A DNA stretch of 64,000 bases, taken from the IMG/VR virus record IMGVR_UViG_3300048672_001143, positions 11,884 through 75,883 of that record; one strand, written 5' to 3'. Position numbers and translations under genes: made by a program. Numbering within the stretch: position 1 is the first letter of the stretch; every line of letters starts with the position of its first letter. Below the pieces are notes generated by a model. That model was not told where the DNA came from. It did no database searches and saw nothing but the letters and a program-made list of their open reading frames with translations. This stretch comes from a virus. Lineage: Duplodnaviria; Heunggongvirae; Uroviricota; Caudoviricetes. Shown in pieces: positions 7,334 through 57,600 of this stretch.

Positions 7334-9037
7334 TTAAAATCCTAAATTAGGGGCCTCAAAATAACTGTCCCCATAGTCATTACCAAAGGCTCCCCCTGAG
7401 TTTCCAACAGCGGAGAAAAATCCCGCCGCTTTGGCCTGGGCGGCCTGTAGAAAAGCGTCGGCGCCGTTACTTTCTGGTCCGTGCTTCGGCGTATTTCGCC
7501 ACGTTCCGGTTCGTGGGTTCCACTCTTTCCGGTACGCTTCGAGTCTTTTTAACCCGACTGAGCAGTGCTTCTGATCAAATACGCATTGACTTAACAAAAT
7601 TCTCCCCTGCTGTATGGCCATCTGCTTGTCCGGGGTTTTCGGTACCAACCAGAATCGCCAGTGCGGGGCTACGCTTTGAAACATTTCTTCCGGAGTCATG
7701 TTTCGATCAGCCCCCTGGCGCCTGTGGTTAGCGTCGTGGGGTAAATATACATACTCGAGGACATAGTTTAACGCATCCACTTCTTTAACGAAATAAGAAA
7801 ACGGTTCGCCGCTCGCCTCCATGTAGTTGATCACCGCATAATGCGTCCGCTTCGGTTGGAAAAACCATAGCGCCGTCTCGTCGTTTTGCCCTATATCACA
7901 GAAAATGCTAACCGGAAACATCGGGTCGTATGGGCACAACCCTATTCGTTGCTCTTTCCGCATCTGACTAAATTGCTCTTTAAAGTACGCCCCTTCCATA
8001 GATACCTTAAACGCTTCATCCGGTGTCGACGGCATTTCCGCCCACATCAATTCCTGATCGCCTGAATACGTAACGTCCCGGTACTTGACGTACCATGCTC
8101 GTTGCCCGTCCGTTATCGGGCGTTTTATCTTCAATTCCAAATCGTTGAAGTACTGCTCGTCCCGAGCAGAAACAATAACGGATCCGGGTGGCATGACGTA
8201 CGCCGGGTCTTCCCACCAGCCAAAGAAGTGGAATTTGAAATCCAGTTTCCACAACGCTTCGCCGGTTTCCTGCATCTTCTGCGCGGTATCCACTAAATCG
8301 TAGAAAGCTCCCTCTTGCCCTTCCGCGGTCGACTCGACGAATACTAAACCGTCTTCCGCTACCGCAGTAATGGATCCCGTCACAATTTCCCGTGCTTTGC
8401 CTGGATCCTTTGCCGCTATCTTTCCAAATTCTGAAATGTGCAGGAAGGAAGGTGTCGTTCCCCGTGCTGAGGTTCGAACTTCTACTCGGCTGCCGTTCTT
8501 AAAAGCGATGCTACTTTTTGATGTCGAGCCTTCCAATGATACCGGGTCGGCGAACTTAAACGGTTCCGGTAAGTTATCGTATGCAAACTTAAACACGTCC
8601 CTGAAAATCGCTTCTGCAATCTCCCGGTCCTGCGCAATTACTACACAGCTTTCATTAGGGGAGAAAAGCGCCGTATCCAACATGAAAATCTGAATGAACG
8701 TCGAGAAGCCCATCTTACGAGCTTTCAGAATAACGTTCCGGGTGTGAAACGAGGATAAGAGTTTTTTCTGTGCGACGTTTGGTTTAAACGTAATAACTTT
8801 CTTTTTCTTATCGACGATCTTGTACAGGTGCGCCATCCGCCAGATTGGGTCGCCCAGATGGTGCGCTAAGTCGTCTTCCGTAAAGTCAAATGACGTCAAG
8901 TCCATAATCGGTTTCCGAGTCGGCTGACTCGGCGGTGCGCTTGCCTGCTGACTCGATTGTGCTGAGGGGTTTTTTCTAGGTCTGCCGGGAGACCGGGTTA
9001 TCTTTTTGTTTTTTGCCTTTGCTTTAGCTGCGGTCAT
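7334..9037 (-). CDS. terL: terminase large subunit
   Basis: Walker A-like ILKARKMGFST, then FIQIFMLDTALFSPNESCVVIAQDRE..., typical of Terminase_6-type large terminases. Immediately follows terS. The true start may be the internal MDLTSF. Confidence 0.85.
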   Translation of the reverse strand: MTAAKAKAKNKKITRSPGRPRKNPSAQSSQQASAPPSQPTRKPIMDLTSFDFTEDDLAHHLGDPIWRMAHLYKIVDKKKKVITFKPNVAQKKLLSSFHTRNVILKARKMGFSTFIQIFMLDTALFSPNESCVVIAQDREIAEAIFRDVFKFAYDNLPEPFKFADPVSLEGSTSKSSIAFKNGSRVEVRTSARGTTPSFLHISEFGKIAAKDPGKAREIVTGSITAVAEDGLVFVESTAEGQEGAFYDLVDTAQKMQETGEALWKLDFKFHFFGWWEDPAYVMPPGSVIVSARDEQYFNDLELKIKRPITDGQRAWYVKYRDVTYSGDQELMWAEMPSTPDEAFKVSMEGAYFKEQFSQMRKEQRIGLCPYDPMFPVSIFCDIGQNDETALWFFQPKRTHYAVINYMEASGEPFSYFVKEVDALNYVLEYVYLPHDANHRRQGADRNMTPEEMFQSVAPHWRFWLVPKTPDKQMAIQQGRILLSQCVFDQKHCSVGLKRLEAYRKEWNPRTGTWRNTPKHGPESNGADAFLQAAQAKAAGFFSAVGNSGGAFGNDYGDSYFEAPNLGF

Positions 9038-9934: not shown

Positions 9935-10008
9935 TGGAGCGGGTACGGGGAATCGAACCCCGTCCCTCAGTTTGGAAGACTGGCGCTCTACCTTAGAGCT
10001 GTACCCGC
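9935..10008 (-). tRNA. tRNA-Gly (anticodon UCC), CCA encoded
   Basis: Manual cloverleaf: acceptor GCGGGTA/TACCCGC, D-arm GCTC-TAAGGTA-GAGC, anticodon loop CTTCCAA, T-arm CGGGG-TTCGATT-CCCCG, 3' CCA. Confidence 0.8.
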
Positions 10009-10016
10009 GAGGTGTT

Positions 10017-10093
10017 TGGTCGGAATAGCAGGATTCGAACCTACGGCCTCACCCTCCCAAGGGGCGCGCTCTACCAAACTGAGCTACATTCCG
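10017..10093 (-). tRNA. tRNA-Pro (anticodon UGG), CCA encoded
   Basis: Manual cloverleaf: acceptor CGGAATG/TATTCCG, D-arm GCTC-AGTTTGGTA-GAGC, anticodon arm CGCCC-CTTGGGA-GGGTG, T-arm GTAGG-TTCGAAT-CCTGC, discriminator A plus CCA. Confidence 0.8.
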
Positions 10094-25402: not shown

Positions 25403-25592
25403 ATGCCTTCAGATCCCGTCGTTTGCAGTTACGAGCGTGAATAATTCGTGTCAGCCAATTCTGGCGAGCAGGAGTTAAAGCCTTTACCTTTTTATCTTCC
25501 AAAGTATCATCTATCCTGGCACACATATCCAGAATAATCTCTTCCAGTTCTTTGATTTCATCTACTAGATTTAAACGATCTTCAGAATTCAT
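25377..25592 (-). CDS. hypothetical protein
   Basis: ORF track; overlaps primase-helicase stop/start by 4 nt. Confidence 0.35.
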   Translation of the reverse strand: MNSEDRLNLVDEIKELEEIILDMCARIDDTLEDKKVKALTPARQNWLTRIIHARNCKRRDLKALKKRLAGG

Positions 25593-28177
25593 ATCAAGCC
25601 CTCCCTGGCATCGTACTCGCCCAATCGGTTTAGCACCGTTTGTTTAGCCTCTTCAAGGGACATAACGGTATCCGCAGAACGTTTGGCCCACAGGCAATGC
25701 CGGTCACCTTGTATACGAACGCGGTCTAGCTTGACGTATCCCAAAGAGAGCAAAGCACTGGTTAGGCGATAAGTATTTTTAGCTTCGAGAGTTCTATTTG
25801 ACTGCGCCACGATGCGATCCCATAGCGGCGTGAAAGAAACTACGTCACCCATAAATAACGGGTTTTTATCGTCCTCTATTATCTCTGAGACAACTTCTGC
25901 CAGTTCGTCTTTGCAAACCTTAATGATATTCTTTTTAGCGTCCGTAGTAGGAGCATGGCCATTTGGGTTGAAATCCGGATGCTTAGGGATATCCAACACC
26001 CAACGCAGCATGTCGCCGCACTGATCCGAAACAATAGCCTCGTGCAGGATGTCAAAGTAATCCGGCTCTTCTAAGTGAATTCGTTTCAATGGGAAAGAAG
26101 ATTTTAAGACAAAATACCGGCGGTCTTTATCGCCTAGGGGTATGGCGTCTTCAAAGTTAGTTGTGAGAATATAGTTTGCCGTATTAGCGACAGTTCGGGT
26201 TTCTTTGCCTTTTTCATGACATTCAATCACATCATTCGTCAGAACATCTTTGATAGAGTTAGTGATCTCATGCCGATTGTGGCCGTGCCACTTAATTTCC
26301 TCGATGAAACCCAGGCAATGCCCCTCTACCCATCCGCTGAAAGAAGTTTTCGCGCTGTTTGCGATCGTAGAGCCTTTTATGGCTTTAGTGTTACTCGGAC
26401 CCAGTGCACGCATCAGCAGCTTAAAGAATAAGCTTTTTCCGTCCCCTTCATCACCGAGTAAGAGTAAAGCCCAGCGGATCTTGATTGGTGGTCGACCAAC
26501 ACAGGAAGCTAAAAAATTACAAAGCAGCTGCGCTTCTCGATTCCAGCCACCACAGACTAACTCGATGTGGCGACGCAAAATATTAGCTGCCTTTTCTCCG
26601 GCAGGAGTTTCAATAGCTTCAGGTATAGGGCAACGGAATCTATCGGTGTACGTATTAACGCACGTAACACCACGATCGACAAAAAACATATCGCAAGCGG
26701 GCATATATTTCTTGGCCATGACTTTTTGTACAAAATAGCTATCACGTACAAAATCAGCGGAAGATGTCGGGCTGCCTTCTCCCCGTGGTAAACGAGAATC
26801 GAAATACCCGTTAAACCCGCGAGTTGTAAGTTTTACGCCAGTAATAACGTTGAAAAATATTTCTTCTGATGAAACCCAAACCCAATTCCTAGCCCAGTCC
26901 GGGGCATTACCGTTGACGAATTCTGGAGCATCTGGAACTTCAGTATGGTCCCGAGTATCTTGGCGAACCCGCATTGCTCGTCTGGCATTGGCTACAGATA
27001 AAACATGCCCTTCGCGCAATGCGGCGTAGCGTGTTCTGAGGCCTTCCAAAAAATCTTGTTCTAACGATACGTTCTCGTTAGCTAATCGCCATAAACGGGG
27101 GGCGACGTCCCGTATTAATACTAAATGGTCCGTACAGCTTTCCAAGAGAGCGCCTGCTTGCTCAATAGCCTCGGCATCACGAGTTTTTTTTACTTCGACT
27201 TGTAAAGCTTTGTGCTCTTTGATCAGTGTTCTAAAGGTGACTTCCGGTCCAGAGGTTCGTTTACCAAAACTTGCCCAAGACTTTGATACATCCTCGAATC
27301 CTTGGTATTCCCGGACGTTTTGGGACCATTTATCGAACATCAGTAAGGCTTCATAGCTGCCTTGAAACTGGTGGTGTAGAATCATGCCTATATCACGCCA
27401 CTGCGCGTAGGACTGATTTCCTGGTTCGGGTAGGTACTGTTCAGCGTTATCGAGGGTAATATCCGGTAGCGGCGCGTATTTAGTATCCTCTTCAGATAAT
27501 GGGATATAATCGCCTTCTATCGTTTCTTGCGCAGCAGGTGGGGGTAGAACCGCCTGTTTGACTAGTACGGGGAATTTTTCTGTGGGAAAAATTTCGGACA
27601 ACTGCTCAGCAGTGTACGGTTCTGCACCAGATTCGTGGATGAGCTTTACTAAAAAAGGAGCTCCTTTACAATGATAAAAACCCGGCACGCGTAAAACGCG
27701 AGCCAGATCTTTTGCGTTAGGGTCAGATCCAAAATGATCTACTAAAACTTGCTGTAAACGTTGATGCTCTTCGTTTGAAATACCAGATACCAAGATAATC
27801 TTGTGAAACTTTCCGGGACTGGTTTCGGTAATTATGTGAGGCTCTACGGGCAATTGTATGCCCAAACCCTCGTCATCTTCAACCCAAATAGCACGAGCCC
27901 GAACGATATTTTTGAGTGTAGCGCCTTGCATATCGGTTTCGTTAATCGTCACGAAAACCCCGGCACGTTTTTTATTTTTCTCCCAGAGCGCCGCTGAAAG
28001 CTGATCGAAAGTCCCGTGTCTAGTCATAGCTAAATCACGGTCTTTTCTGGTCTTTATGTCATCAAATGTTCTGAAAGAAAAGCCATCAGAGGTACCATCT
28101 AACAGGGACCGGTATTCTGCGGAAGGGTCTAATATCTGTAAAAATCTAGCTGCTTGTAAAAAATCAGGTTGAGCCAT
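25589..28177 (-). CDS. primase-polymerase (prim-pol) fused to SF3 (D5/P4-alpha-like) helicase
   Basis: N-terminal VFVTINETD ... ARAIWVEDDEG prim-pol motifs; C-terminal Walker A GDEGDGKSLF and Walker B-like RYFVL, typical of the SF3 helicase layout. Confidence 0.7.
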   Translation of the reverse strand: MAQPDFLQAARFLQILDPSAEYRSLLDGTSDGFSFRTFDDIKTRKDRDLAMTRHGTFDQLSAALWEKNKKRAGVFVTINETDMQGATLKNIVRARAIWVEDDEGLGIQLPVEPHIITETSPGKFHKIILVSGISNEEHQRLQQVLVDHFGSDPNAKDLARVLRVPGFYHCKGAPFLVKLIHESGAEPYTAEQLSEIFPTEKFPVLVKQAVLPPPAAQETIEGDYIPLSEEDTKYAPLPDITLDNAEQYLPEPGNQSYAQWRDIGMILHHQFQGSYEALLMFDKWSQNVREYQGFEDVSKSWASFGKRTSGPEVTFRTLIKEHKALQVEVKKTRDAEAIEQAGALLESCTDHLVLIRDVAPRLWRLANENVSLEQDFLEGLRTRYAALREGHVLSVANARRAMRVRQDTRDHTEVPDAPEFVNGNAPDWARNWVWVSSEEIFFNVITGVKLTTRGFNGYFDSRLPRGEGSPTSSADFVRDSYFVQKVMAKKYMPACDMFFVDRGVTCVNTYTDRFRCPIPEAIETPAGEKAANILRRHIELVCGGWNREAQLLCNFLASCVGRPPIKIRWALLLLGDEGDGKSLFFKLLMRALGPSNTKAIKGSTIANSAKTSFSGWVEGHCLGFIEEIKWHGHNRHEITNSIKDVLTNDVIECHEKGKETRTVANTANYILTTNFEDAIPLGDKDRRYFVLKSSFPLKRIHLEEPDYFDILHEAIVSDQCGDMLRWVLDIPKHPDFNPNGHAPTTDAKKNIIKVCKDELAEVVSEIIEDDKNPLFMGDVVSFTPLWDRIVAQSNRTLEAKNTYRLTSALLSLGYVKLDRVRIQGDRHCLWAKRSADTVMSLEEAKQTVLNRLGEYDAREGLI

Positions 28178-28662: not shown

Positions 28663-28725
28663 ATCTCACATCGAGTCGGGTAACTGATCTCGGTTTTTTA
28701 ATCTTTAAATCCTGGAGAATAATAA

Positions 28726-29223
28726 ATGGCCCTAGAAAATGAAGTCTCGGAATTACGAAATTCTATAAATCTTTTAACCAGCGCAATCAATAAGCTGATC
28801 AATTCTGCGCCGGTAAGCGGTACATCTACGGCTGCGGCAGCCGCTAAAGAACCGGCGGCAAAGCCGGAAGCTGTTAAAGAAGAACCGGCCAAGAAAGCAG
28901 CGCCGGCAAAAGCGAAGACCGCAGAAAGCGAACAGCTTGACGCGATGAAGGAAGTCATCGAAGAAGCTGGCGAACCGGAATTCCCGGAATTACCCGCCGG
29001 AACGCGCGATGAAGCGTATTGTAAAAAGCATGTTACCCCGGTATTCCTCCAATTGGTGGCCGCCGCGGATAAAGATACCGCTGTAGCATTGATAAAGAGT
29101 TTCAAGAAATCTGACGGCACCTCAGCTGCCAACACTCTGGAAATACCCACTAAAGAGTGGGATAAAGCGGTAGACATGGCCAAGAAAGCCATCGAAAAAG
29201 CAAAATCGGCCGAAGTAATCTAG
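28726..29223 (+). CDS. hypothetical protein (A/K/E/P-rich centre)
   Basis: ORF track; CTGGAGAATAATAA-ATG. Preferred over the antisense track ORF 28698..29192, which is pure Ala/Ser low complexity. Confidence 0.45.
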   Translation: MALENEVSELRNSINLLTSAINKLINSAPVSGTSTAAAAAKEPAAKPEAVKEEPAKKAAPAKAKTAESEQLDAMKEVIEEAGEPEFPELPAGTRDEAYCKKHVTPVFLQLVAAADKDTAVALIKSFKKSDGTSAANTLEIPTKEWDKAVDMAKKAIEKAKSAEVI

Positions 29224-29224
29224 T

Positions 29225-29521
29225 ATGGCCGAAGACGCACAGCATCACCAATATGGGGCCTCAGGCGCCGAAAAATGGGTGACTTGCGCGGGAGCCCTTG
29301 CTATGGAGCAGGGGCAGCCTGATACGTATAGCCCGTACGCGGATGAAGGTAGCGCAGCGCATTTTTTAGGGGCGGAGTGTTTAATTAACGGCACGAACCC
29401 GAAAGATTACAAAGGCCGTACCATTGTTTGCTGGGAAAAAGAAGGCGAACGTGACGGGCAAGTTTTCTTAGACGTGAACTGGCCAACCGACGAGGAGGAG
29501 GTAAGCGATGATTTCATCTGA
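29225..29521 (+). CDS. Cas4/DUF2800-like PD-(D/E)XK nuclease, N-terminal fragment
   Basis: YGASGAEKWVTCAG (N-terminal Cys of the Fe-S cluster) and EGSAAH motif. Frame ends at 29521; continuation is in the +1 frame. Confidence 0.45.
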   Translation: MAEDAQHHQYGASGAEKWVTCAGALAMEQGQPDTYSPYADEGSAAHFLGAECLINGTNPKDYKGRTIVCWEKEGERDGQVFLDVNWPTDEEEVSDDFI

Positions 29522-30848
29522 GAAAGCCATACCACCCGGTTCTAAGGAAAGAAGCCGTTGGGAAGTTACGGATGAGATGATCTACGAGGTAGAGAAGTAC
29601 GTTGAGGGCATACGAAATAAAGCTAAAGGCGGTACGCTTTTTGTCGAAAAGCGAGTCGAATTTGGACATGCTATTGGCTTAGAAGGTGCTTTTGGGACTA
29701 CAGATGCTGCGATACTGTCGGCAAACGGGGAAGAAATCAGCGTAGACGATCTAAAGTATGGCTATACCCCCGTCGGCGCCGAGTTGAATCCACAGCTGAT
29801 GCATTACGCAATCGGTACTATTTCCGATTTAGCTAAGCAGGGCTTTGATTTATCAAAGCTAAAGACGCTGAAGTTGAGTATATGGCAGCCTCGTATTAAT
29901 AATTTTCCAGAGTGGGAAGTTAGCCTTACCGAAAAGAACGAAGACGGTGAGACCATTCTCGAATGGTTTGCTAAAAAATCTCAGGAAGCAGTCGCCCGAT
30001 CTGAGGAAGCATTCTCGGCTTTGGACGTTATTAACGCACTGCCTTCCTCTGAAATAATGGGCGCGCAACGCGTCTGGATAAAAAAGTATCTGACACCCAG
30101 TTATAAAGGTTGCCAATGGTGCAAAGCCAAAGGTTTCTGTGCAGCACGTACGGAAGATGCTTTGAAAAGCATAATCGCCGTTCCAGAGGCTAATTTGGAC
30201 GGTTTGGAAGACTTAGATACTCCTGTCTTAGGGGCGGATACGGATTTAGTGAAAGGCGTTGAGGATGCTATTGCCAGAATACCGACGCTAGCTTTTAGCG
30301 ATCTGGAAAAAGCGTACATGGCTTTGGGTAAAATCAAAGACTGGAGCGCCGGGATAGCCGAGCAGATGCACGCGGAAATGATGGCCGGGGAAAGAAGTAA
30401 GCAGTATAAACTGGTTATGGGCCGAGAGGGTGACCGCAAATGGTCGAGCGAAGTGGAAGCAGAAGAACTTATGAAAAGCATGCGTCTAAAAGTAGACGAA
30501 ATGTACAATAAAAAAGTAATTACTGCCCCACAGGCCGAAAAGGTACTCGCGAAGAGCCGACCTAAACTATGGGCTAAACTAACGCCGTTAATCGGTAGAA
30601 CCCCAGGAAAACCGGTAATAGCGGACATTTCTGATAAACGCCCTTCGATAGACCCTTATCGAGATGCTTTAGATGACCTTACCAACCTTGACGATGGTTC
30701 TAGGATGGTACAAACCCTAGAGGATTTAGATCCTTCTTTGAATGTCCCTGGAATTTCAGGGAAAGAGAGTACCGCGAATATGCGGGCACGGAAAAAAACC
30801 AAACCTAAAACGGAACCAGTAACGGTTTCTGAAATAGATTTTATTTGA
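29508..30848 (+). CDS. Cas4/DUF2800-like PD-(D/E)XK nuclease, main part (motifs II-III, QxxxY, CxxCx5C)
   Basis: TTDAAIL ... EISVDDLKYGY (D ... D-x-K) and CQWCKAKGFC C-terminal cysteines. +1 frame relative to the upstream fragment, open only from 29505. Confidence 0.5.
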   Translation: MISSEKAIPPGSKERSRWEVTDEMIYEVEKYVEGIRNKAKGGTLFVEKRVEFGHAIGLEGAFGTTDAAILSANGEEISVDDLKYGYTPVGAELNPQLMHYAIGTISDLAKQGFDLSKLKTLKLSIWQPRINNFPEWEVSLTEKNEDGETILEWFAKKSQEAVARSEEAFSALDVINALPSSEIMGAQRVWIKKYLTPSYKGCQWCKAKGFCAARTEDALKSIIAVPEANLDGLEDLDTPVLGADTDLVKGVEDAIARIPTLAFSDLEKAYMALGKIKDWSAGIAEQMHAEMMAGERSKQYKLVMGREGDRKWSSEVEAEELMKSMRLKVDEMYNKKVITAPQAEKVLAKSRPKLWAKLTPLIGRTPGKPVIADISDKRPSIDPYRDALDDLTNLDDGSRMVQTLEDLDPSLNVPGISGKESTANMRARKKTKPKTEPVTVSEIDFI

Positions 30849-30868: not shown

Positions 30869-31453
30869 ATGGCAATAGTAACCATTAGAAACGCAAGATT
30901 GGCTTTCCCGGATCTTTTTGAACCGGTACAATTTCAAGGTTCGGGCCCGTTTAATTGGCGGTGCACCTTCTTAATAGACCCAGAAAACCCTGCAAAAGCG
31001 GCCATAGAAGCAGCTTTTAAACAAGTAGCTGCAGAAAAATGGGGGGCTAAAGCACAACAATTTCTGCCATCTATTTTATCGGCCCCGAATAAATGTTGCT
31101 TATCTGACGGCAATCTGAAAGCCTACAACGGCTTCGCTGGAAATTGGGCCGTTACCGCGACTCGCGCCCAAGATTTTACAAAAAAGAACGCCAATGCTCC
31201 TGAGATAGTCGACCGGAACCGCTCCATTTTGACGGGGATCGAAGGTAAAATTTATGCGGGCGCTTTTGTGAACGGCACCGTAGACGTCTGGGCGCAAGAC
31301 AATTCCTATGGTAAAGGGCTACGCGCGACATTAATAAACGTCCAATACGTAAAGAACGGGGATTCTTTCGGTGGCTCTGCACCGGCCACGTCCTTGAACT
31401 TGGAAGATTTATCATTCGAAGACGATGACGAAGGGGATATCGACAGTATATGA
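30869..31453 (+). CDS. DUF2815-like ssDNA-binding protein (acidic C-terminal tail)
   Basis: ATG at 30869 with CCGGAG SD (track TTG start at 30845). Start pattern MAIVTIRNARLAFPDLFEP and SSB-like tail LEDLSFEDDDEGDIDSI. Known to travel with DUF2800 and PolA in phage replication modules. Confidence 0.5.
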   Translation: MAIVTIRNARLAFPDLFEPVQFQGSGPFNWRCTFLIDPENPAKAAIEAAFKQVAAEKWGAKAQQFLPSILSAPNKCCLSDGNLKAYNGFAGNWAVTATRAQDFTKKNANAPEIVDRNRSILTGIEGKIYAGAFVNGTVDVWAQDNSYGKGLRATLINVQYVKNGDSFGGSAPATSLNLEDLSFEDDDEGDIDSI

Positions 31454-37070: not shown

Positions 37071-37270
37071 TGGAGAAAAGAACAACCACCAAAACGATCG
37101 TAGAAAAAACGATGGTATTTGGAGATTCAGAATTAGAAATTATTTTGCGCCAGCATTTTAATATGCCCAAAGGCAAGTTAGAAGTGGAACACGGCGAGGG
37201 AAATTACCTAACTGAATACACTTTTACAGAAACGCACACTACTGCAGAAACCGTCCCTGATGACATCTGA
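37067..37270 (+). CDS. hypothetical protein
   Basis: ORF track. Confidence 0.3.
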   Translation: MMEKRTTTKTIVEKTMVFGDSELEIILRQHFNMPKGKLEVEHGEGNYLTEYTFTETHTTAETVPDDI

Positions 37271-39671
37271 AACTATTCTCTGGTCCGATACGGAAACTAA
37301 ATCGGAATGCGATCTTAGGTCTGCGGGAACGGCCAAGTACGCAGAACATCCCTCTACCCGGATTCAACTGTACTCGTTCGCGTTTAACGAAGACCTAGTT
37401 AAGATCTGGAGTCCCGAAGAACGCGAGATTATTCCGATAGAACTGGAAGAAGCTTTCGAGGATCCTGAGGTTATCCTGCAGTTCCACAATACTTGGTTTG
37501 ATAGATCGGTGATGCTCAAAACAAAGCGCCACCTGCAAGCTTTATCGCGCCGTAAAAGGGACTGGGATTTCCGTATAGAGCGCTTCCGTTGCTCTATGGC
37601 GCAAGCTTTGTCACACGGCCTGCCGGGCGGCCTCGATCATCTCGGAGAGATTTTAGGAATCCGGGAGGAAGCTAAAAAAGTCCGTGATGGTAAACGTCTG
37701 GTACAGAAATTTTGCAAACCTTGTGGTTTTGAACGGGACGGCACTACGTATAAGTGGAATACCCCGGAAAACGCCCCTGAGGATTGGGCCGCTTATAAAG
37801 TATACGCTATGGGCGATACAACGGCCATGCGTGAAATTGTCAAAAAGATACCCAGATATAATTACCCAGGAAATGCCACAGAACGTAAACTTTGGTTCAT
37901 GGATCAAACGGTAAATAGCCGGGGGATGGCTATAGACCTGGAATTGGCAAATGCCGCTATGGATACAATAGTTCTTACGCAGGCGCAATTATCGGTAAAA
38001 ACGAAAGAAATGACTGACGGTGCTGTTGGGTCTGCGTCGCAAAGGGACGAGCTGTTAAAGCACATCCTGGAGGAGTACGGCATCGAGTTACCGAACATGC
38101 AAAAAGCTACGTTGACTCGGTTGGTAGACAATGACGATACTCCGCCAGCTTTGCGCGAATTGCTGGAAGTTAGGCTGAGTACTAGCACCACGTCTACGGC
38201 CAAGTATAAACGGATAGTCCAGTCCACCTGTGAAGATGGCCGCTTGCGCGGGACTATCCAATTTTCAGGAGCGCAACGAACTCAGAGGGATGCCGGACGT
38301 ATTACCCAGGTTCAGAATTACCCGTCTAAAGGACTACTGCCGGTAGATGAAACGAAAATGGGGATAGAAGCGTTAAAACTAAACGCCGCAGATATCCTGG
38401 GTTTCGATATCATGCACTTAACCAAGTCAACTTTGCGTTATACGATAAAAGCTGAACCGGGTAAAAAACTCTTGGTAGCGGATTTATCAAATATTGAGGG
38501 GAGGTGTTTGGCATGGCTTGCGGGAGAAAAATGGAAGCTCCAGGCTTTTAGAGAATTCGATGCTGGCACGGGGCCGGACCTCTATAAACTAGCGTATGCA
38601 AAAGCCTTTGGCGTGCATCATTCTGAAGTAACTAAAGAGCAGCGTAACTATATTGGGAAAATTTTGGAACTCGCCCTAGGTTACCAGGGAGGAGCTTCTG
38701 CTATCGTTACTTTTGCCCTATCGTTCGGTTTAGAACTGCAGGTTCTAGCGGAACAGGTTATGCCAACACTACCTGAATGGGCCATAGAAAAATCAGAAAG
38801 TCTGTACGACTGGTTTAACGATATGGACATAGCGGAGGCCAAGAAACGAGCTAAAAAAGAGACCGAATCTGAGGCCACCTGGGAAGAATATTACGTACCG
38901 AAGAGAACAAAACACCTTAGTAAATTTGTGTTTACTGCGCTTGATAGCTTGAAACGGTTGTGGCGGAAAGAACATCCGCAAACTGAAAAATTGTGGGCTG
39001 ACGCTGAAAACGCTTGTAAAAATGCGGTTGAAATACCTAACAAGGAATTCTACTTCGGAAATGGTTGCTCTGCAAAAAGACTGGGCAAATGGGTACGTAT
39101 TAAGCTGCCGAGTGGGCACAGTCTATGCTACCCAAATATGGAGATCTGCGGGGAAGATACCACCCTCGTTGAAATTCGAAAAGTGGCTAATTCCGATAAT
39201 GTGAGCATTTGGCGTAACAGTAAAGAAGCGGCCCCGAAAGAAATATTCGAATCCGTAGACTTGGCCAGAGCCAAGATATTCAAGGATTGCGCTAATGCGG
39301 AAAAGTTAGTATCTTCAGCGGATGCCGTCTTAGAAGCTTACCAGACTCGAAGTGATAAAAGCGGCCTTCGCTTCAAGGGGGTTAACCAGTTCACGAAAAA
39401 ATGGGGCTGGATTTGGACTCACGGAGGAAAAATAATCGAAAACTGTACGCAAGGCCTAGCCCGCGACGTGTTTAAACACGGACAGCTCTTAGCGGAAGAA
39501 AACGGCTACCCGGTTATCCTACCGGTGCATGATGAATTGGTTTGCGAAGTGCCGGACTCTGAAGAGTATACCGTACATGGTTTAGAAGAGATGATGGCCA
39601 CAGTACCGGTATGCACTCCAGGATTACCCCTGGCCGCAGAAGGCTTCGAGGATTACGTTTACCATAAATAG
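37260..39671 (+). CDS. family A DNA polymerase with 3'-5' exonuclease domain
   Basis: Exo I WSDTETK; motif A LVADLSNIEGRCLAWLAG; motif B QRNYIGKILELALGYQGG; motif C ILPVHDELVCEV. Confidence 0.9.
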   Translation: MTSETILWSDTETKSECDLRSAGTAKYAEHPSTRIQLYSFAFNEDLVKIWSPEEREIIPIELEEAFEDPEVILQFHNTWFDRSVMLKTKRHLQALSRRKRDWDFRIERFRCSMAQALSHGLPGGLDHLGEILGIREEAKKVRDGKRLVQKFCKPCGFERDGTTYKWNTPENAPEDWAAYKVYAMGDTTAMREIVKKIPRYNYPGNATERKLWFMDQTVNSRGMAIDLELANAAMDTIVLTQAQLSVKTKEMTDGAVGSASQRDELLKHILEEYGIELPNMQKATLTRLVDNDDTPPALRELLEVRLSTSTTSTAKYKRIVQSTCEDGRLRGTIQFSGAQRTQRDAGRITQVQNYPSKGLLPVDETKMGIEALKLNAADILGFDIMHLTKSTLRYTIKAEPGKKLLVADLSNIEGRCLAWLAGEKWKLQAFREFDAGTGPDLYKLAYAKAFGVHHSEVTKEQRNYIGKILELALGYQGGASAIVTFALSFGLELQVLAEQVMPTLPEWAIEKSESLYDWFNDMDIAEAKKRAKKETESEATWEEYYVPKRTKHLSKFVFTALDSLKRLWRKEHPQTEKLWADAENACKNAVEIPNKEFYFGNGCSAKRLGKWVRIKLPSGHSLCYPNMEICGEDTTLVEIRKVANSDNVSIWRNSKEAAPKEIFESVDLARAKIFKDCANAEKLVSSADAVLEAYQTRSDKSGLRFKGVNQFTKKWGWIWTHGGKIIENCTQGLARDVFKHGQLLAEENGYPVILPVHDELVCEVPDSEEYTVHGLEEMMATVPVCTPGLPLAAEGFEDYVYHK

Positions 39672-42820: not shown

Positions 42821-42838
42821 TCGCACGACATTTTGCTT

Positions 42839-42866
42839 AAGCCGTACTTTTGTGCGGCTTTTTTAT
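42839..42866 (+). terminator. putative terminator AGCCGTACTTTTGTGCGGCTTTTTTATC
   Basis: 5-bp stem plus T6, just after the stop of 41765..42820. Confidence 0.4.
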
Positions 42867-42889
42867 CTTTAAAATCCGATAAAAGAGAT

Positions 42890-44305
42890 ATGCAACGTAA
42901 ACTCTACATTCCTCGTCCTTATGGGCGTAGCGGAACCAATTTCATCCTGGATACTCCTCGTTGTAATCTCCACGTCGACATGGGTCTTGGAAAAACCGTA
43001 ATGGCCTTGACTGCCCTGGACATTCTGTACTTGTGCGGCGAAACGCACCCCACTTTAATCTTGGCACCTAAGAGAGTGGCCACTTCAACCTGGGGTACTG
43101 AAGCGGCTAAATGGTCGCATTTATCGTCTTTGGAAATATCCCCCATCGTTGGTACACCGGAGCAGCGCATGGCCGCTTTGAAACGGGACGTACCTATCTA
43201 TACAATAAATTATGAAAATATCGTGTGGCTTATCAAATATCTGAAGATATGGCCGTTTCGGACGATAATAGCAGACGAGTCTACGAAGTTAAAAAGTCAC
43301 CGCGTCCACTGGCAGACTAACGATAAAGGTACGACTTTTCTAGTTAGAACCGGAGGGGAAAGGACCAATGCCCTCACGCATCTAGCCTGGAAAAAAACTT
43401 TACGCTGGATAAATTTATCCGGGACACCAGCTCCTAATTCTTTGGGCGATCTTTGGGGTCCGCAATGGTACGTGGACCAAGGTAAATCCCTCGGGCTTAA
43501 TTACACAGCCTTTGAAGATCGTTGGTATAAAAGGGGGTATAACAAATACGATCTCGTAATGTTGCCACACGCCGAGAGGGAGATCCGAGAAGCTATCGCC
43601 CCAACTACGTTCACTTTGCGCGCGGAAGATTATTTAACCCTCGGAGAAGAAGTAGTAAACACCATTTATGTGGATTTGCCCGAAAAAGCGCGTAAGCATT
43701 ACCGGGAAATGGAGCGGGACCTTTATACCGTCATAAACGCCGGGGAAGTAGAAGCGTTTACCGCGGCTACTAAGAGCATGAAATGCCACCAGTTGGCGAA
43801 CGGCGCCCTATACCATGACGATAAGGGGTCTTGGGAACCTATACACAATGAAAAGCTGGAAGCTTTGCAGGAAGTACTCGAAGAGTCCGGTGGCCTACCC
43901 GTTCTTGTCTGCTATAAATTTAAAAGCGATCTAGCACGGTTACTAAAAGCATTCCCTAGTGGAATACCACTTGACACGGTACTAAAAAACAAAGATAATA
44001 GTAGCCTTGGAAATGTTCCAATATTCATACATCCTGATAGCGCTGGCCACGGCGTAGATGGCCTACAAAAGGTAACCAATATCATATGTTTCTATTCCAT
44101 TGACTGGAATGCGGAAACGAGATTACAGGTAATTGCCCGGATAGGAAAAGTCCGGCAATTTCAGGCCGGGTTAGATAGACCCGTTTTTATTCACCAGATA
44201 GTGGCTCGAAATACGGTAGATGAAGATATTCTTCGTAGGATAGACTCCAAAATGACGGTACAAGACGCCTTAAAAGAAGGCTTAGCGAGGAGGAATTTGA
44301 AATGA
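42890..44305 (+). CDS. SNF2-family ATPase/helicase
   Basis: Motif I DMGLGKT; motif II IIADESTKLKS; motif III LSGTPAPNSLGDLWGPQ. ATG at 42890 after AAAAGAGAT (track TTG at 42833). Confidence 0.7.
   Translation: MQRKLYIPRPYGRSGTNFILDTPRCNLHVDMGLGKTVMALTALDILYLCGETHPTLILAPKRVATSTWGTEAAKWSHLSSLEISPIVGTPEQRMAALKRDVPIYTINYENIVWLIKYLKIWPFRTIIADESTKLKSHRVHWQTNDKGTTFLVRTGGERTNALTHLAWKKTLRWINLSGTPAPNSLGDLWGPQWYVDQGKSLGLNYTAFEDRWYKRGYNKYDLVMLPHAEREIREAIAPTTFTLRAEDYLTLGEEVVNTIYVDLPEKARKHYREMERDLYTVINAGEVEAFTAATKSMKCHQLANGALYHDDKGSWEPIHNEKLEALQEVLEESGGLPVLVCYKFKSDLARLLKAFPSGIPLDTVLKNKDNSSLGNVPIFIHPDSAGHGVDGLQKVTNIICFYSIDWNAETRLQVIARIGKVRQFQAGLDRPVFIHQIVARNTVDEDILRRIDSKMTVQDALKEGLARRNLK
43971..43999 (+). 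promoter_or_regulatory. internal sigma70-type promoter TTGACA-17-GATAAT inside the SNF2 gene
   Basis: Full extended motif CCACTTGACAC and 17-nt spacer. Confidence 0.4.
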
Positions 44306-49460: not shown

Positions 49461-49538
49461 GCCACTTTAGCTTAGTCGGTTAAAGCAGGCCGCTCATAAC
49501 GGCAAGTGTGCTGGGTTCGAATCCCCCAAGTGGCACCA
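49461..49538 (+). tRNA. tRNA-Met/Ile2-like (anticodon CAU), CCA encoded; imperfect T-stem
   Basis: Acceptor GCCACTT/AAGTGGC perfect; D-arm GCTT-AGTCGGTTA-AAGC; anticodon arm GGCCG-CTCATAA-CGGCA; T-arm CTGGG-TTCGAAT-CCCCC has only 3 clean pairs. Confidence 0.55.
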
Positions 49539-54482: not shown

Positions 54483-54698
54483 ATGCCCAACTCAAACAAC
54501 GACGCTTTTTTCGAAGAGCTACGCGAAAGAAACCGGTTTAAAAACGATACCTACTCAAACGAAGACCTGCAAAAGTTAATCGATGGTATGTATGAGCGCT
54601 ACGCTTCTCTTGGGGCTAACCAAGACAAGCACGCGTTGTTTAGAAAGATTTTAGAATTAATCGATGTGCAGATAGCGAGAGCAAAATCCGCTACCTAA
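54483..54698 (+). CDS. hypothetical protein
   Basis: ORF track; same CTGGAGAAATAAAA-ATG leader; stop overlaps the convergent giant ORF's stop. Confidence 0.35.
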   Translation: MPNSNNDAFFEELRERNRFKNDTYSNEDLQKLIDGMYERYASLGANQDKHALFRKILELIDVQIARAKSAT

Positions 54699-57600
54699 TC
54701 CCCATTTTCTTCCCGCAATCTGTTTTGTTCATAGAGGTACGCCAGTCTTGGATTTACGGCGTACCCTCTAATTCCTCTGGCCTGCTCGTTCTTAGCTGTT
54801 CTTACTGCCGATTTATGAATGCTTTCGTAAGTAATTGGCCACGATGGGTGATCTTTCTGCCACTTGCTCAACTCTTCCTGTGGAATCGGTTCGCCTTTTG
54901 TTACCGCTTTCTGGATCTTATTTACCAGTTTAGCGCGAGCATCGGATATCGCAGCTTCTGCGGCTTTATTATACCCGCGTTCAGCGTACAGCACTTCCAT
55001 ATTGGAACTACCCAACCCGATAGCCTGGAACAGTACTTCCATTGCAGAAGCGTCTTTCAATTGCTCCCCGTTCATACTTTCGTACCCAGACTGAGCTAAG
55101 CGGATAGCTTTCATTCCGTCGCCAATCGCTTTGGGCGTAGCGCTTTCTACCCCACGCCATATTTCCCCATCGCCTAGCATTTTTGCGCCATCAGCGATCT
55201 TCTTAACCATGCCACCGAATGGTCCTGCGACTTGTGAGAGATACTCAGTCGCAGCATCTTTCCCTTCCAGGTCTTTCAAAGGCTCTTGGAAGAAGATATT
55301 GCTCAAATTCATACGGGAGGCTAAGTTGACCGGGGTCAACGCATTGCCCAACCCTTTAATAACCGCCGTAGCGAAGGTTTCACCCCCGAGGGAAGTCAAT
55401 CCTACACGAACTTCCTTTTCTACGTCCCACGGCTCATCATCGTCGGATACGGCGTTGCCAAGAGCGTTTAGCACCATGGTTATCGCGCCCATCAAAGGCA
55501 TTCCAAATAAACCGGCAGCCGCACCCTGCATAACAAACAGCGCTGATAGCGATCTAGCTGCTTCTTTCGCTTCTGCTTTTCTGGCGTCGGCCAAAGCTAT
55601 TTCTTCCGGGGTATTTCTCGGCATTTTTTTCCAATACCCAAGCGTATCGACTGCGGTACGACCCCACAAATAAAGCATGGCCTGTGGATATTTTTTATAC
55701 TGCATAACCACGCCAGCTACAGGCCCGCGGAATATGCGAGCCGCGTTTTCAGTCGAGTAATCGCCGTGCGCATCATTGTTTAGCTTACGGGCATACTCCA
55801 AGGCTTCGTAGTGATTTTCTGGATCCCCGTTCAACGCTAAATCATAAGCCGCCAAGAGGGTAATTTCTCGGTTCATCCGCTCACCGTGGTGAAACATCCA
55901 ACCCATCTTTTTGTTGAATTCTTGCAGGCGACCGCCGTAATCTTCCCCTTCACGGCCGATGCCCAAAACATCGAAGAAGTTGGTCCTGGAAACATCACCC
56001 TCTTCTTTAAAATCGCGTAAAGCAGCTAAGCGCCTGGAGATGCGGAGCATTTCTCTAGGATCGCCGTTGTGCGCCCGGAGATAAGCTAATTTTTCTTCCA
56101 TTACCACTGAGATAGATACGTTCCCGTCTTCATCCCGGTAAATGTAATTTCCATTGGCGTCTTTCTTGTTGAAGTTGATAACCGCTTTAAGGAATTCATT
56201 TCTGGTATTTCCAAAAGCTTTTCGGGTTGCATTAACCCCGTATTTACCTACCGCAATGGGCATAGCCACAACGGGTGTTTGAAATAAGTTGACTAAACCA
56301 CTTGATAAACCGAAACCCATAGTCATAACGAAGTCGAATTGGCGAATAGCCGCAGCCACCTGATCCATGCCTGTACTAGAAGTGTTCACCATCGCATTGT
56401 AGGTCTTATTCAACTCTTCGATGGTGTATGCGGCTTTGTGGCTGTTCTCAGTGTTTATGTGGCTAGCAGCTTCTAAAGCTTCCTTATTGCGTACCGCTAC
56501 TCTTTCCAAAGATTCTTCCGGGGAACCTACGGATACCGTATTTTCCCACAACGTTTGCACTTTTCTAAAGCGTTTTACCTGCTCTGGAATTCCAGTAGCT
56601 ATAATATCTGCTATGGCTGCTTCCACTCGCTGTGGGTCTTGGTATTGAGCCCAAAAGCTGGCTATTTTTTCAGCGGTTTTAAGCGCGTCGGAAGCTTCTG
56701 CGCGTTCCCGTGCAGTAGTCGCTTCCGATAGGTTTTTCTGCGCTATGAATAAAGCTTTTGGAACTTTGTTAGCGATATCTAGATGGCTGAATTTATTGCG
56801 TAGCTTAATCGCTTCATCGTACAGATTCTGTTCTTCCGCCGGCGCGTTATCCCTGAGCTCCTCTAAGGCACCTTCTTGTTTCAACTCGTCCCAATTCGCC
56901 CCCAACATTTCAGCCGCTTGCATTTCAGTACGCTTTGCTTCACGAGCAGAAGTTTTAGTCGCTATGTCCAGTGCCAGCTTAGCATCTCGGAGAGATTCGC
57001 CCATGTTACGACCTTCCACCATATTGGCTAATTGGGAAGCTCCGTGGTGGATAGTGTTGGCAAAAGCCCGCATAGCATCTTCATCGAAGCCTTTTGTGCC
57101 TTTGCGGTGCATAGCGTTGTGCCGGACCGAAATATCTGGCAACGTTGCCAAATACATTTGGTGGATCTCATCTTGCAACTCTTTAGAAACCTCGATTGGG
57201 ATATCCGCCGCATCGATTTTCTCGTGAATATTTTTCAAGAAGTTGTCCGATACAGCATCCCCAATCTGCGCGTTTTGCATTTCGCTTAATGAAGTTCCCT
57301 GATCTCTTACCGTTCCACCTTCAGCTTCGAAGTTCTTTACCGCCCGTTTTCTAGCGGCTAAAGACTCATAAGTCATGAACCAGTTTTCGCCTTGGGCATC
57401 TTTTCCGTAAAACCAATGATCCCCGTAACGCTTCAACGGTGCGTAGTACCAGGATAGTGACTGGGATTCAAATTTTATCCGGAGTTGCGCGATCAATCCT
57501 GCCGCAGTTTGAGCATCGATCATCGACTCTTCGATCCGGTGTTCGAGTGCTTCCAGGCGGGCGTTGAATATCTCCTGGTGGAGTTCGTATGTGCCTGAAT

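Follow-up and report, generated by a model that had tools for sequence, protein, structure and literature searches.

Probable fission of a phage DUF2800 exonuclease gene into two overlapping, translationally coupled cistrons

The Cas4/DUF2800-like nuclease encoded within the window (a 64,000-nucleotide stretch of a Caudoviricetes virus) is divided between two overlapping open reading frames, and this arrangement is very probably a fixed gene fission with translational coupling that yields a separately initiated, two-chain nuclease. The split is real and conserved among relatives, with purifying selection acting on both of its sides and initiation signals present at the junction.

ORF1 (29225..29521, + strand; ATG at 29225, TGA at 29519-29521) encodes the N-terminal fragment of the DUF2800 nuclease, consisting of 98 aa, and ORF2 (29508..30848, + strand; ATG at 29508, TGA at 30846-30848) encodes the 446-aa C-terminal fragment in the +1 frame relative to ORF1. 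The two frames overlap by 14 nt (ATGATTTCATCTGA, 29508..29521, + strand), a segment that begins with the ORF2 start codon (29508-29510), ends with the ORF1 stop codon 11 nt downstream of the ORF2 ATG, and is probably the site of translational coupling. The ORF2 frame is closed upstream by a TAA at 29502-29504, and any joining event must therefore fall within 29505-29521. The coordinates of both frames, their +1 relation and the opening of the second frame only from 29505 had been given correctly in the preliminary description. A strong Shine-Dalgarno sequence of the GGAGG type (GAGGAGGAGGT, 29492..29502, + strand), which that description had not noted, is located 5 nt upstream of the ORF2 ATG and is embedded in Glu codons of the ORF1 tail, an acidic and non-homologous C-terminal extension of 16 residues (DVNWPTDEEEVSDDFI) that comes after the EGSAAH helix. 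Each fragment is a complete open reading frame, and the downstream start and ribosome binding site overlap or adjoin the upstream stop, the configuration by which fission with coupling is recognized. The ORF1 tail ends in the acidic-hydrophobic residues SDDFI and in its amino acids resembles the C-terminus of the full-length DUF2800 family; this resemblance was not relied upon, being in part imposed by the Shine-Dalgarno (GAG GAG) and by the ATG within the overlap (GAT GAT).

The Pfam DUF2800 profile (PF10926, gathering cut-off 21 bits) was matched by ORF1 over profile positions 1-59 (42.1 bits, E = 8.6e-11) and by ORF2 over profile positions 68-368 (164.6 bits, E = 4.9e-48). PHROG 69, annotated as 'exonuclease', matched both frames in the same complementary pattern. 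This complementary coverage indicates, at the level of profile comparison, that ORF1 and ORF2 are two halves of one family domain, and chance cannot explain it. ORF1 carries the first cysteine, and ORF2 the catalytic motifs and three further cysteines, as had been noticed beforehand, and the motifs then quoted are all present, with YGASGAEKWVTCAG and EGSAAH on ORF1 and GTTD, VDDLKYGY and CQWCKAKGFC on ORF2. Cys21 of ORF1 occupies the position of the first Fe-S ligand, which is at least 90% conserved in the family alignment, and ORF1 keeps H7, S13, C21, E28, E41, G42, A45, H46 and L53, all conserved across 77 family members. In ORF2, the residues of catalytic motifs II, III and IV (D66, D81-L82-K83 and Q96/Y100) lie in invariant columns of both the 12- and 77-sequence alignments. 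The invariant C202, C205 and C211 (CxxCx5C) complete, with C21 of ORF1, the four-cysteine set for a putative 4Fe-4S cluster, and ORF2 also carries a C-terminal helical domain. Every family-conserved residue is kept across the two pieces.

The AF2 model of an intact homologue, P0003, had a pLDDT of 87.7, and its best fold matches in the PDB were Cas4 SSO0001 (4ic1), MGME1, RecE, AdnAB and lambda exonuclease, with Foldseek probabilities of ~1.0 but E-values of only ~2e-3. A sequence search of the PDB with the family profile detected no relative, and its sole match, MIC60, was rejected as spurious. Profile matches to both halves and the fold match to Cas4 SSO0001 agree with the initial assignment of a Cas4/DUF2800-like nuclease in two frames, and the pair is predicted to have the activity of a Cas4/RecB-like PD-(D/E)XK nuclease of the DUF2800 family. 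The break site corresponds in the P0003 model to a loop (residues 82-90) between the strands at 78-81 and 91-97. An AlphaFold model of the concatenated ORF1 and ORF2 showed the same fold as the intact protein, with residues 83-110 as coil and pLDDT below 50 at residues 97-102, exactly the chain break. The models therefore suggest a break placed where the fold would tolerate it, within a disordered inter-strand loop.

The same split was present in at least four other contigs, 84-89% identical in DNA and drawn from different JGI and ENA assemblies: L003 (84% nucleotide identity), L008 (88%), L090 (89%) and a 10,235-nt contig with P0127 and P0124. In this arrangement, referred to here as type A, fragments of 97/98 aa and 446/448 aa are encoded with an identical 14-nt overlap, which is invariant in all four type-A sequences that were aligned. 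In L003, L008 and L090 the Shine-Dalgarno survives as GAGGAGGT or GAGGGGGT even though the sequences differ by a 3-nt indel and substitutions, and in L090 the five changes found just after the overlap are all synonymous in the ORF2 frame. Searches of the phage collection with the DNA of the locus (megablast and blastn) gave no match, and homologues in that collection were found at the protein level only, at ≤36% identity. The type-A contigs are all metagenomic and form one fairly shallow clade (84-89% nucleotide identity), which may mean that the fission arose recently in evolution.

Homopolymer errors can occur in metagenomic contigs, and the singleton L017, a relative with an A7 run and no downstream start, is an example of just such an error. 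That an error of sequencing or assembly has introduced an indel into a gene that is really intact, as first considered for this locus, is nonetheless scarcely credible: the split recurs in at least five assemblies that diverge by 11-16% in DNA, the junction differs from that of intact genes by +49 nt and not by 1 nt, and no homopolymer was seen at the ORF1/ORF2 junction by inspection. Among the type-A relatives, moreover, the 3-nt indel is in frame and, with the nearby substitutions, leaves both frames intact.

Both ORF1 and ORF2 are under strong purifying selection. The dN/dS of ORF1 was 0.08 against L003, 0.10 against L008 and 0.03 between L003 and L008, with 11 synonymous and 4 non-synonymous differences from L003 (binomial p = 1e-5), and that of ORF2 was 0.075 against L003 at a dS of 0.77. 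When the ORF1 region was read in its other two frames, omega was >2 and 6-7 stops were encountered. These values bear on the possibility of a pseudogene, a nuclease that lost its function in an ancestor shared by these phages and is now decaying, in favour of which stand the interruption of a gene that is whole in 119 relatives and the shallowness of the split clade. Such decay is highly improbable given that the low dN/dS of both halves spans a post-split dS of 0.2-0.8, that further stops and out-of-frame indels are absent, that the family-invariant residues are all kept and that the Shine-Dalgarno and ATG are maintained in relatives. Since diverged contigs share the split and both halves are under selection, the pair represents an evolved gene split and neither a sequencing error nor a dead gene; the indel and the recent pseudogenisation proposed in the preliminary description are accordingly not upheld.

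Programmed +1 ribosomal frameshifting had also been proposed, in which a shift within 29505-29521 would produce a full-length fusion with the aid of a Shine-Dalgarno-like stimulator, as in prfB. ORF2 does lie in the +1 frame, a 17-nt window is open in both frames, the TGA could act as a pause, and the invariance of the 14-nt overlap in four sequences would suit a recoding site. Frameshifting can in some systems be promoted by a strong Shine-Dalgarno within a gene, and coupling does not preclude recoding, as Antonov et al. (2013, PMC3711429) point out. The codons concerned (AGC GAT GAT TTC ATC TGA), however, include none that re-pairs the P-site tRNA in the +1 frame, and a site of the CUU-U, CCC-U or UUU-N type is absent from 29505-29521. 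The known +1 shift sites used for comparison were those of prfB, antizyme and Listeria phage PSA; stimulation in prfB involves a Shine-Dalgarno spacing of ~3 nt. Here 13 nt separate the end of the Shine-Dalgarno from the last sense codon, whereas its 5-nt spacing from the ATG is ideal for initiation, and the ORF2 frame in this way possesses an initiation signal of its own. Fissions that arose independently in the family place the downstream gene in the -1 frame and still possess, in every case, a Shine-Dalgarno and an ATG that overlaps the stop; conserved RNA structure was not found at the junction. Frameshifting is thus very unlikely at a junction that is 49 nt longer, contains Shine-Dalgarno, ATG and stop, and lacks a shift-prone codon, and we infer that ORF2 is initiated separately.

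An RNA fold sequestering the Shine-Dalgarno and ATG was not significant in the single sequence (z = -1.4), and compensatory pairs were not found in a four-sequence consensus at the junction. By these two tests, significant or covarying RNA structure was found for no specific coupling mechanism.

The origin of the junction can be considered against intact genes. From RDGQ to SRW the distance is 112 nt at this locus, as against 63 nt in five intact relatives, the sister genes among them, and no Shine-Dalgarno/ATG arrangement was found at the junction position of the intact sister genes. In a neighbour-joining tree, type A is sister to the intact P0003, P0004 and L010 (bootstrap 90). The possibility that the junction was copied from the 3' end of the same gene together with the intergenic region was tested by local DNA alignment, which gave no significant result. 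In the proposed fission, a single-chain DUF2800 exonuclease gene would have gained a segment 49 nt longer in the loop between two beta-strands, providing an upstream stop codon, a strong Shine-Dalgarno and a downstream ATG. As the two resulting cistrons overlap by 14 nt, they would be translated as separate polypeptides. Coupling is probable in that ribosomes ending ORF1 at the TGA at 29519-29521 would pass over the Shine-Dalgarno, and could re-use it and the ATG 11 nt upstream. The 98-aa and 446-aa fragments would then reassemble as a heterodimer into the normal fold, a prediction drawn from the retained residues and from strand pairing in the single-chain models, with the first ORF2 strand paired to two strands from ORF1. 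An Fe-S cluster held by Cys21 of ORF1 and Cys202, Cys205 and Cys211 of ORF2 would bridge the chains as a staple.

The genes on either side are those that accompany intact nuclease genes. Upstream is a conserved gene of 165 aa (28726..29223, + strand), for which no Pfam or PHROG match above threshold was found, and a gene of 163-166 aa occupies the same position beside both split and intact relatives. Its TAG stop is 1 nt ahead of the ORF1 ATG (TAGTATG). The preliminary description had set its readings against the finding of related phages with the same split, each gene having its own ribosome binding site; this was found for ORF2, while ORF1 starts 1 nt past the stop of the upstream gene, just as intact nuclease genes do. 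Downstream, a Gp2.5-like, Enc34-type single-stranded DNA-binding (annealing) protein (30869..31453, + strand; PF10991, E = 4e-26; PHROG 112) is the conserved partner, with the same synteny in all relatives, and a duf2800-gp2.5-polA phage module has been described (PMC8093625). The two-chain enzyme would work with this adjacent annealing protein and PolA in phage recombination and replication.

A two-gene locus under selection could also encode products that no longer form one enzyme, for example with ORF2 alone as the nuclease and ORF1 in a new role like that of TTV1 TP1. A precedent is known in a split viral Cas4 whose N-terminal piece became a nucleocapsid protein (PMC4625639), and the ORF1 tail is new sequence whose SDDFI end resembles the C-terminus of the full-length family. 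Subfunctionalisation of this kind is quite unlikely: ORF1 keeps all the residues conserved in the single-chain proteins, including Cys21 and EGSAAH, for which an unrelated function would have no need, its modelled strands are integral to the sheet that holds the first ORF2 strand, and the catalytic residues lost in TTV1 were not lost from the ORF1/ORF2 nuclease.

Comparison of junction sequences indicates that fissions arose independently in other DUF2800 lineages, and every one of them has its own Shine-Dalgarno, with an ATG that overlaps the stop of the upstream piece. L006 and L007 are broken in the same loop as type A but at a different junction (GGGAGGGGAATGATGG) with ORF2 in the -1 frame; they are sister to the intact P0015 and L089 in the neighbour-joining tree (bootstrap 100) and differ from them by a diverged patch of ~120 nt. 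Fissions at two other sites, in L012/L095/L096 and in L121, likewise combine a Shine-Dalgarno with an ATG that overlaps the stop, and 119 surveyed loci were intact. A search of all libraries with ORF1 gave 1493 matches, most of them full-length; the short matches were largely contig-end truncations or adaptor chimeras and were excluded from the fission counts. The APSE-1 'P51 | P52' pair was rejected as a split nuclease, P52 being an antisense ORF inside an intact P51.

That fission has recurred within a single family may point to a structural predisposition, or else to some advantage under selection. A more speculative proposal, which we consider unlikely, is that the DUF2800/Cas4-like exonuclease is unusually prone to adaptive fission, with at least four independent junctions in three loops giving coupled two-chain enzymes, a type-A 4Fe-4S 'iron staple' between polypeptides, and a new C-terminus of the N-fragment (…SDDFI, or …LEDLI in another type) that may mimic by convergence the acidic-hydrophobic docking motif at the C-terminus of the family's own proteins. 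If true, the split would be favoured by selection and not merely tolerated, for instance because it allows separate stoichiometry or control of the two pieces, lets them dock with partners, or evades a host defence that recognizes the unsplit protein.

For annotation, the pair is best recorded as two genes of one enzyme and not as a frameshifted pseudogene or recoding site, and the same rule would hold wherever other DUF2800 lineages show a comparable junction of Shine-Dalgarno, ATG and stop. The pair also constitutes a natural experiment on where the Cas4/RecB-type Fe-S nuclease fold tolerates a chain break, and offers a candidate inter-subunit iron-sulfur 'staple'.

The closest known counterparts are the single-chain DUF2800 exonucleases, such as APSE-1 P51 and Bbp38 of Bordetella phage BPP-1, which have the same profile, catalytic motifs and four cysteines as ORF1 and ORF2 together and the same neighbours (a gene of ~165 aa upstream and an SSB of the Gp2.5/Enc34 type downstream, with PolA also encoded by the genome). 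They differ in that the enzyme is encoded here by a pair of overlapping cistrons (98 and 446 aa) whose junction is 49 nt longer, and the best homologues in the phage database are ~36% identical. The only other known viral split Cas4-like nuclease is TTV1 TP1/gp7, in which nuclease function was lost (Krupovic et al. 2015, PMC4625639). There too the first cysteine is on the first piece and the other three on the second, but the TTV1 gene is split inside the QhxxY motif with loss of catalytic residues, whereas the present split lies upstream of motif II and the catalytic and cysteine residues are kept. Both pieces are under purifying selection here, while TP1 represents exaptation to a nucleocapsid protein; the type-C fissions (L012/L096) are positionally closer to the TTV1 split than type A is. 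prfB (RF2) is similar in its +1 relation, in the in-frame stop that closes the overlap and in its upstream Shine-Dalgarno-like sequence; the locus described here differs in having no CUU-U-like codon, an initiation-type Shine-Dalgarno spacing, an ATG of its own and sister fissions in the -1 frame. The coupled gene pairs of Antonov et al. (2013, PMC3711429) have, as here, a conserved downstream ATG within ~10-20 nt of the upstream stop and a ribosome binding site, the three features used there to tell coupling from recoding. Those clusters are mostly distinct gene pairs, whereas a single Pfam domain is divided here, which was assumed in that study to denote a true frameshift. Essential phage enzymes of DNA metabolism that are made as two polypeptides and reassemble in active form are known among the T4-like 'genes in pieces', namely Aeh1 NrdA (with mobE), gp43A/B of Aeromonas phage 25 and of 44RR, and T4 gp39/gp60 (PMC2988022). 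The T4-like splits hold a homing-endonuclease gene or an untranslated spacer, whereas the present genes are separated by no inserted gene and share only a 14-nt stop/start overlap, and the few phage enzymes of replication and recombination known to be encoded in pieces thereby gain a case free of homing endonuclease and spacer.

A DUF2800 (Cas4/RecB-like) nuclease is encoded on the + strand of the window by two overlapping reading frames, ORF1 (29225–29521, 98 aa) and ORF2 (29508–30848, 446 aa), the latter in the +1 frame relative to the former. The preliminary description of this split was borne out in its coordinates, frame relation and every motif it quoted. The ORFs overlap by 14 nt (ATGATTTCATCTGA), and a TAA at 29502–29504 closes the ORF2 frame just upstream. 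A strong Shine-Dalgarno sequence (GAGGAGGAGGT, 29492–29502, + strand), absent from the preliminary description, lies 5 nt before the ORF2 ATG. The Pfam DUF2800 profile (PF10926, gathering score 21) matched ORF1 over profile positions 1–59 (42 bits) and ORF2 over positions 68–368 (165 bits). The PHROG 69 'exonuclease' profile gave the same complementary pattern, and the two ORFs were therefore assigned as halves of one family domain. By all sequence and fold criteria tested, their predicted product is a DUF2800 nuclease.

The AlphaFold2 model of an intact, single-chain homologue (P0003, pLDDT 87.7) had its best PDB fold matches in Cas4 SSO0001 (4ic1), MGME1, RecE, AdnAB and lambda exonuclease, with Foldseek probabilities of about 1.0 and E-values of only about 2e-3. 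The break of the window's arrangement (type A), and of a second fission described below (type B), falls in the loop at residues 82–90 of this model, between strands 78–81 and 91–97. In a model of concatenated ORF1 and ORF2 (pLDDT 85.2) the order of secondary structure is unchanged. Residues 83–110, comprising the ORF1 tail and ORF2 head, are modelled as coil, and the pLDDT drops below 50 at residues 97–102, exactly the chain break, placing the break within an expendable, lengthened loop. In the model the sheet that holds the first strand of ORF2 also contains the two strands of ORF1, an argument that the two chains must associate.

A sequencing indel, one of the explanations first proposed, was ruled out because several independent assemblies carry the same two-ORF architecture. 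One related locus (L003) encodes chains of 97 and 446 aa, with the ORF2 protein 89% and the DNA 84% identical to the window. A 779-nt ENA contig (L008) and a further locus (L090) are split as in the window, at 88% and 89% DNA identity respectively, and a 10,235-nt contig encoding P0127 (97 aa) and P0124 (448 aa) has the same architecture. The 14-nt overlap is invariant in 4/4 aligned type-A sequences, the Shine-Dalgarno reads GAGGAGGT or GAGGGGGT, and a 3-nt in-frame indel (one Glu codon) distinguishes the window from L003. Recent pseudogenisation, also raised initially, was rejected given a dN/dS (omega) of 0.03–0.10 in both ORFs and the retention of all conserved residues. By the Nei-Gojobori method, ORF1 of the window and L003 differ by 11 synonymous and 4 non-synonymous changes (omega 0.08; binomial p = 1e-5 against neutrality), with an omega of 0.10 between the window and L008 and 0.03 between L003 and L008. 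For ORF2 the window and L003 gave an omega of 0.075 (dS 0.77). The two other frames of the ORF1 region showed an omega above 2 and 6–7 stops. Because every compared sequence carries the split, this purifying selection post-dates the fission. All residues conserved across 77 members of the family are kept in ORF1 (H7, S13, C21, E28, E41, G42, A45, H46 and L53), and in ORF2 the catalytic motifs (D, DxK and QxxxY) and the cysteines of CxxCx5C are intact.

In intact sister proteins the junction reads ...RDGQSFLGQSMPEGAKERSRW..., and the span from RDGQ to SRW is 63 nt in 5/5 intact relatives. The window reads ...RDGQVFLDVNWPTDEEEVSDDFI followed by a stop, then MISSEKAIPPGSKERSRW..., with a span of 112 nt. 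A simple frameshift is ruled out by this 49-nt longer junction. The extra sequence supplies a stop, a Shine-Dalgarno and an ATG, exactly what two cistrons need, and no such Shine-Dalgarno/ATG arrangement was found at the junction position of intact genes. Programmed +1 frameshifting, which would join the two frames, was judged unlikely. Re-pairing of the P-site tRNA in the +1 frame is possible at none of the codons open to a shift (AGC GAT GAT TTC ATC TGA); known +1 shift sites follow a CUU-U or CCC-U pattern. The 13 nt from the end of the Shine-Dalgarno to the last sense codon are wrong for prfB-type stimulation, where the spacing is about 3 nt, whereas the Shine-Dalgarno is ideally placed for starting translation at the ATG. 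Neither significant nor covarying RNA structure was found at the junction, and some other members of the family have fissions in the opposite frame relation, each of them equipped with a Shine-Dalgarno and an ATG. The preliminary description had named relatives with the same split and their own ribosome-binding sites as evidence against its reading, and such relatives were found. Judged by the criteria that Antonov et al. 2013 set out (a start within ~10–20 nt of the upstream stop, a ribosome-binding site and conservation in homologues; PMC3711429), the junction sequence bears the signature of translational coupling. As coupling and recoding need not exclude each other (PMC3711429), a very small residual probability is kept for some frameshifting.

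About 140 related loci, drawn from IMG/VR, JGI/ENA metagenomes and GTDB genomes, were surveyed by applying HMMs of the N-part and C-part of the family to their stop-to-stop ORFs; 119 loci were intact. Type A (window, L003, L008 and L090) breaks in the loop before ERSRW, with GAGGAGG or GAGGGGG, an ATG, the 14-nt overlap and ORF2 in +1. Type B (L006/L007, two assemblies with 6 mismatches in 5.9 kb; 89 + 374 aa) breaks in the same loop, with GGGAGGGGAATGATGG and ORF2 in the -1 frame. An NJ tree built with 200 bootstraps placed type A as the sister of intact P0003/P0004/L010 (bootstrap 90) and type B as that of intact P0015/L089 (bootstrap 100); because each is sister to different intact genes, the two arose independently. 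Between L006 and L089 the flanking DNA is identical around a ~120-nt strongly diverged patch (L006:3340–3460 vs L089:690–800) holding a 12-nt insert with Shine-Dalgarno, stop and start. This comparison suggests that the type-B junction was gained via a short recombination or gene-conversion patch, not point mutation. Type C (GGAGGACTTATGCTAG and GGAGGACTTAATATGA) breaks beyond the QxxxY helix, in a lineage sharing ~40% identity with the window protein, and is conserved between L012/L095 and L096, the last being clearly more diverged (L012:3348–3372, L095:98–122, L096:170–206); its Shine-Dalgarno GGAGGA lies within Leu-Glu-Asp codons and its ATG overlaps the stop (ATGCTAG or ATATGA). Type D (GGGGGTGCAAAATGA), after QPR, was seen in one contig (L121:663–711), with GGGGGTG, 5 nt and then an ATGA stop/start overlap. 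Disruptions lacking a downstream start, in L017 (A7 homopolymer frameshift, 3854–3942), L101 (in-frame stop, 3553–3555) and L085, are probable errors or pseudogenes; the first two contrast with the Shine-Dalgarno/ATG-equipped fissions.

The N-fragments end in new C-termini (…SDDFI, …LEDLI, …LEDLC) that resemble the conserved acidic-hydrophobic ending of full-length family members (…EIDFI, …LDDLI, …LEDLA), as compared at window 29474–29521 and 30828–30848 and at L096:160–206 and 1040–1081. The neighbouring single-stranded DNA-binding protein likewise has an acidic tail (…DDDEGDIDSI). Such tails may be a partner-docking motif; alternatively, they may be a side effect of the constraints that a Shine-Dalgarno and an overlapping ATG impose, or of the loop having undergone a short tandem duplication. 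At the DNA level the similarity is not significant.

The window is a phage genome, encoding a portal (2977–5358, -), terminase (7334–9037, -), RepB/PriCT-type primase (25589–28177, -), PolA (37260–39671) and helicase (42833–44305). Downstream of the nuclease lies a Gp2.5/Enc34-type ssDNA-binding protein (30869–31453), and upstream a conserved 165-aa Ala/Lys/Glu-rich gene (28726–29223, +) without family assignment. The stop of the latter is 1 nt from the ORF1 ATG, and the three or four genes thus form a chain of tightly coupled cistrons. A 164-aa antisense ORF (28698–29192, -) overlapping the 165-aa gene almost entirely is probably spurious, a by-product of low-complexity sequence. The setting is that of the known duf2800-gp2.5-polA module (PMC8093625), and Steczkiewicz et al. 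2012 class DUF2800 as RecB-like PD-(D/E)XK, 'probable prophage proteins' (PMC3424549). No DNA-level relative of the locus was present in the phage collection, and the best isolated-phage homologues, from APSE phages and BPP-1, are single-chain at ~33–37% identity. The only moderately close reference-genome match, an intact gene in a Methylobacter sp. MAG (L135, JANYKK010000113.1; 44% identity), could be a hint that phages of this group infect methanotrophs or gammaproteobacteria. Elsewhere, a 3099-aa ORF (54695–63994, -), very long for a phage gene and reaching nearly to the end of the window, has weak Pfam matches to LPD39 (large polyvalent protein domain) and a GGDEF domain and may be a large injected 'polyvalent' protein. 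Three phage tRNAs (Gly-TCC, Pro-TGG, Met-CAT) are located at 9935–10093 (-) and 49461–49538 (+).

Both ORFs of the locus are complete cistrons under purifying selection, and their Shine-Dalgarno/ATG/stop overlap is conserved. ORF1 would be translated in coupling to the upstream gene through TAGTATG, and ORF2 initiated at the ATG at 29508, either directly, through its strong Shine-Dalgarno, or by ribosomes that re-initiate after terminating 11 nt downstream. Such initiation would give near-equimolar products, and the 98-aa and 446-aa chains would assemble into the usual Cas4/RecB-like fold. An 'iron staple' Fe-S arrangement is known from AddB and Cas4; here the predicted cluster ligands, Cys21 of ORF1 and Cys202/205/211 of ORF2, would join the two chains. 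The two-chain enzyme may be the exonuclease that partners the Gp2.5-like annealing protein.

The ORF1/ORF2 pair is most likely a fixed gene fission with translational coupling, a more ordinary explanation than recoding would be, and it represents a new architecture within a known family of phage nucleases. Also of note are the recurrence of independent fissions among DUF2800 genes and the implied inter-chain Fe-S cluster. The listed titles and abstracts of 18 papers mentioning DUF2800 contained no description of a split. The closest precedent is the split Cas4 of archaeal virus TTV1 (TP1 + gp7), in which the cysteines are partitioned 1+3, as in ORF1/ORF2 (PMC4625639); the type-C fission is close in position to this split. 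However, TTV1 lost the catalytic residues and its TP1 turned into a capsid protein (PMC4625639), whereas ORF2 keeps its catalytic motifs. Functional split phage enzymes include Aeh1 NrdA, gp43A/B and T4 gp39/60, whose splits contain an inserted homing-endonuclease gene or spacer (PMC2988022).
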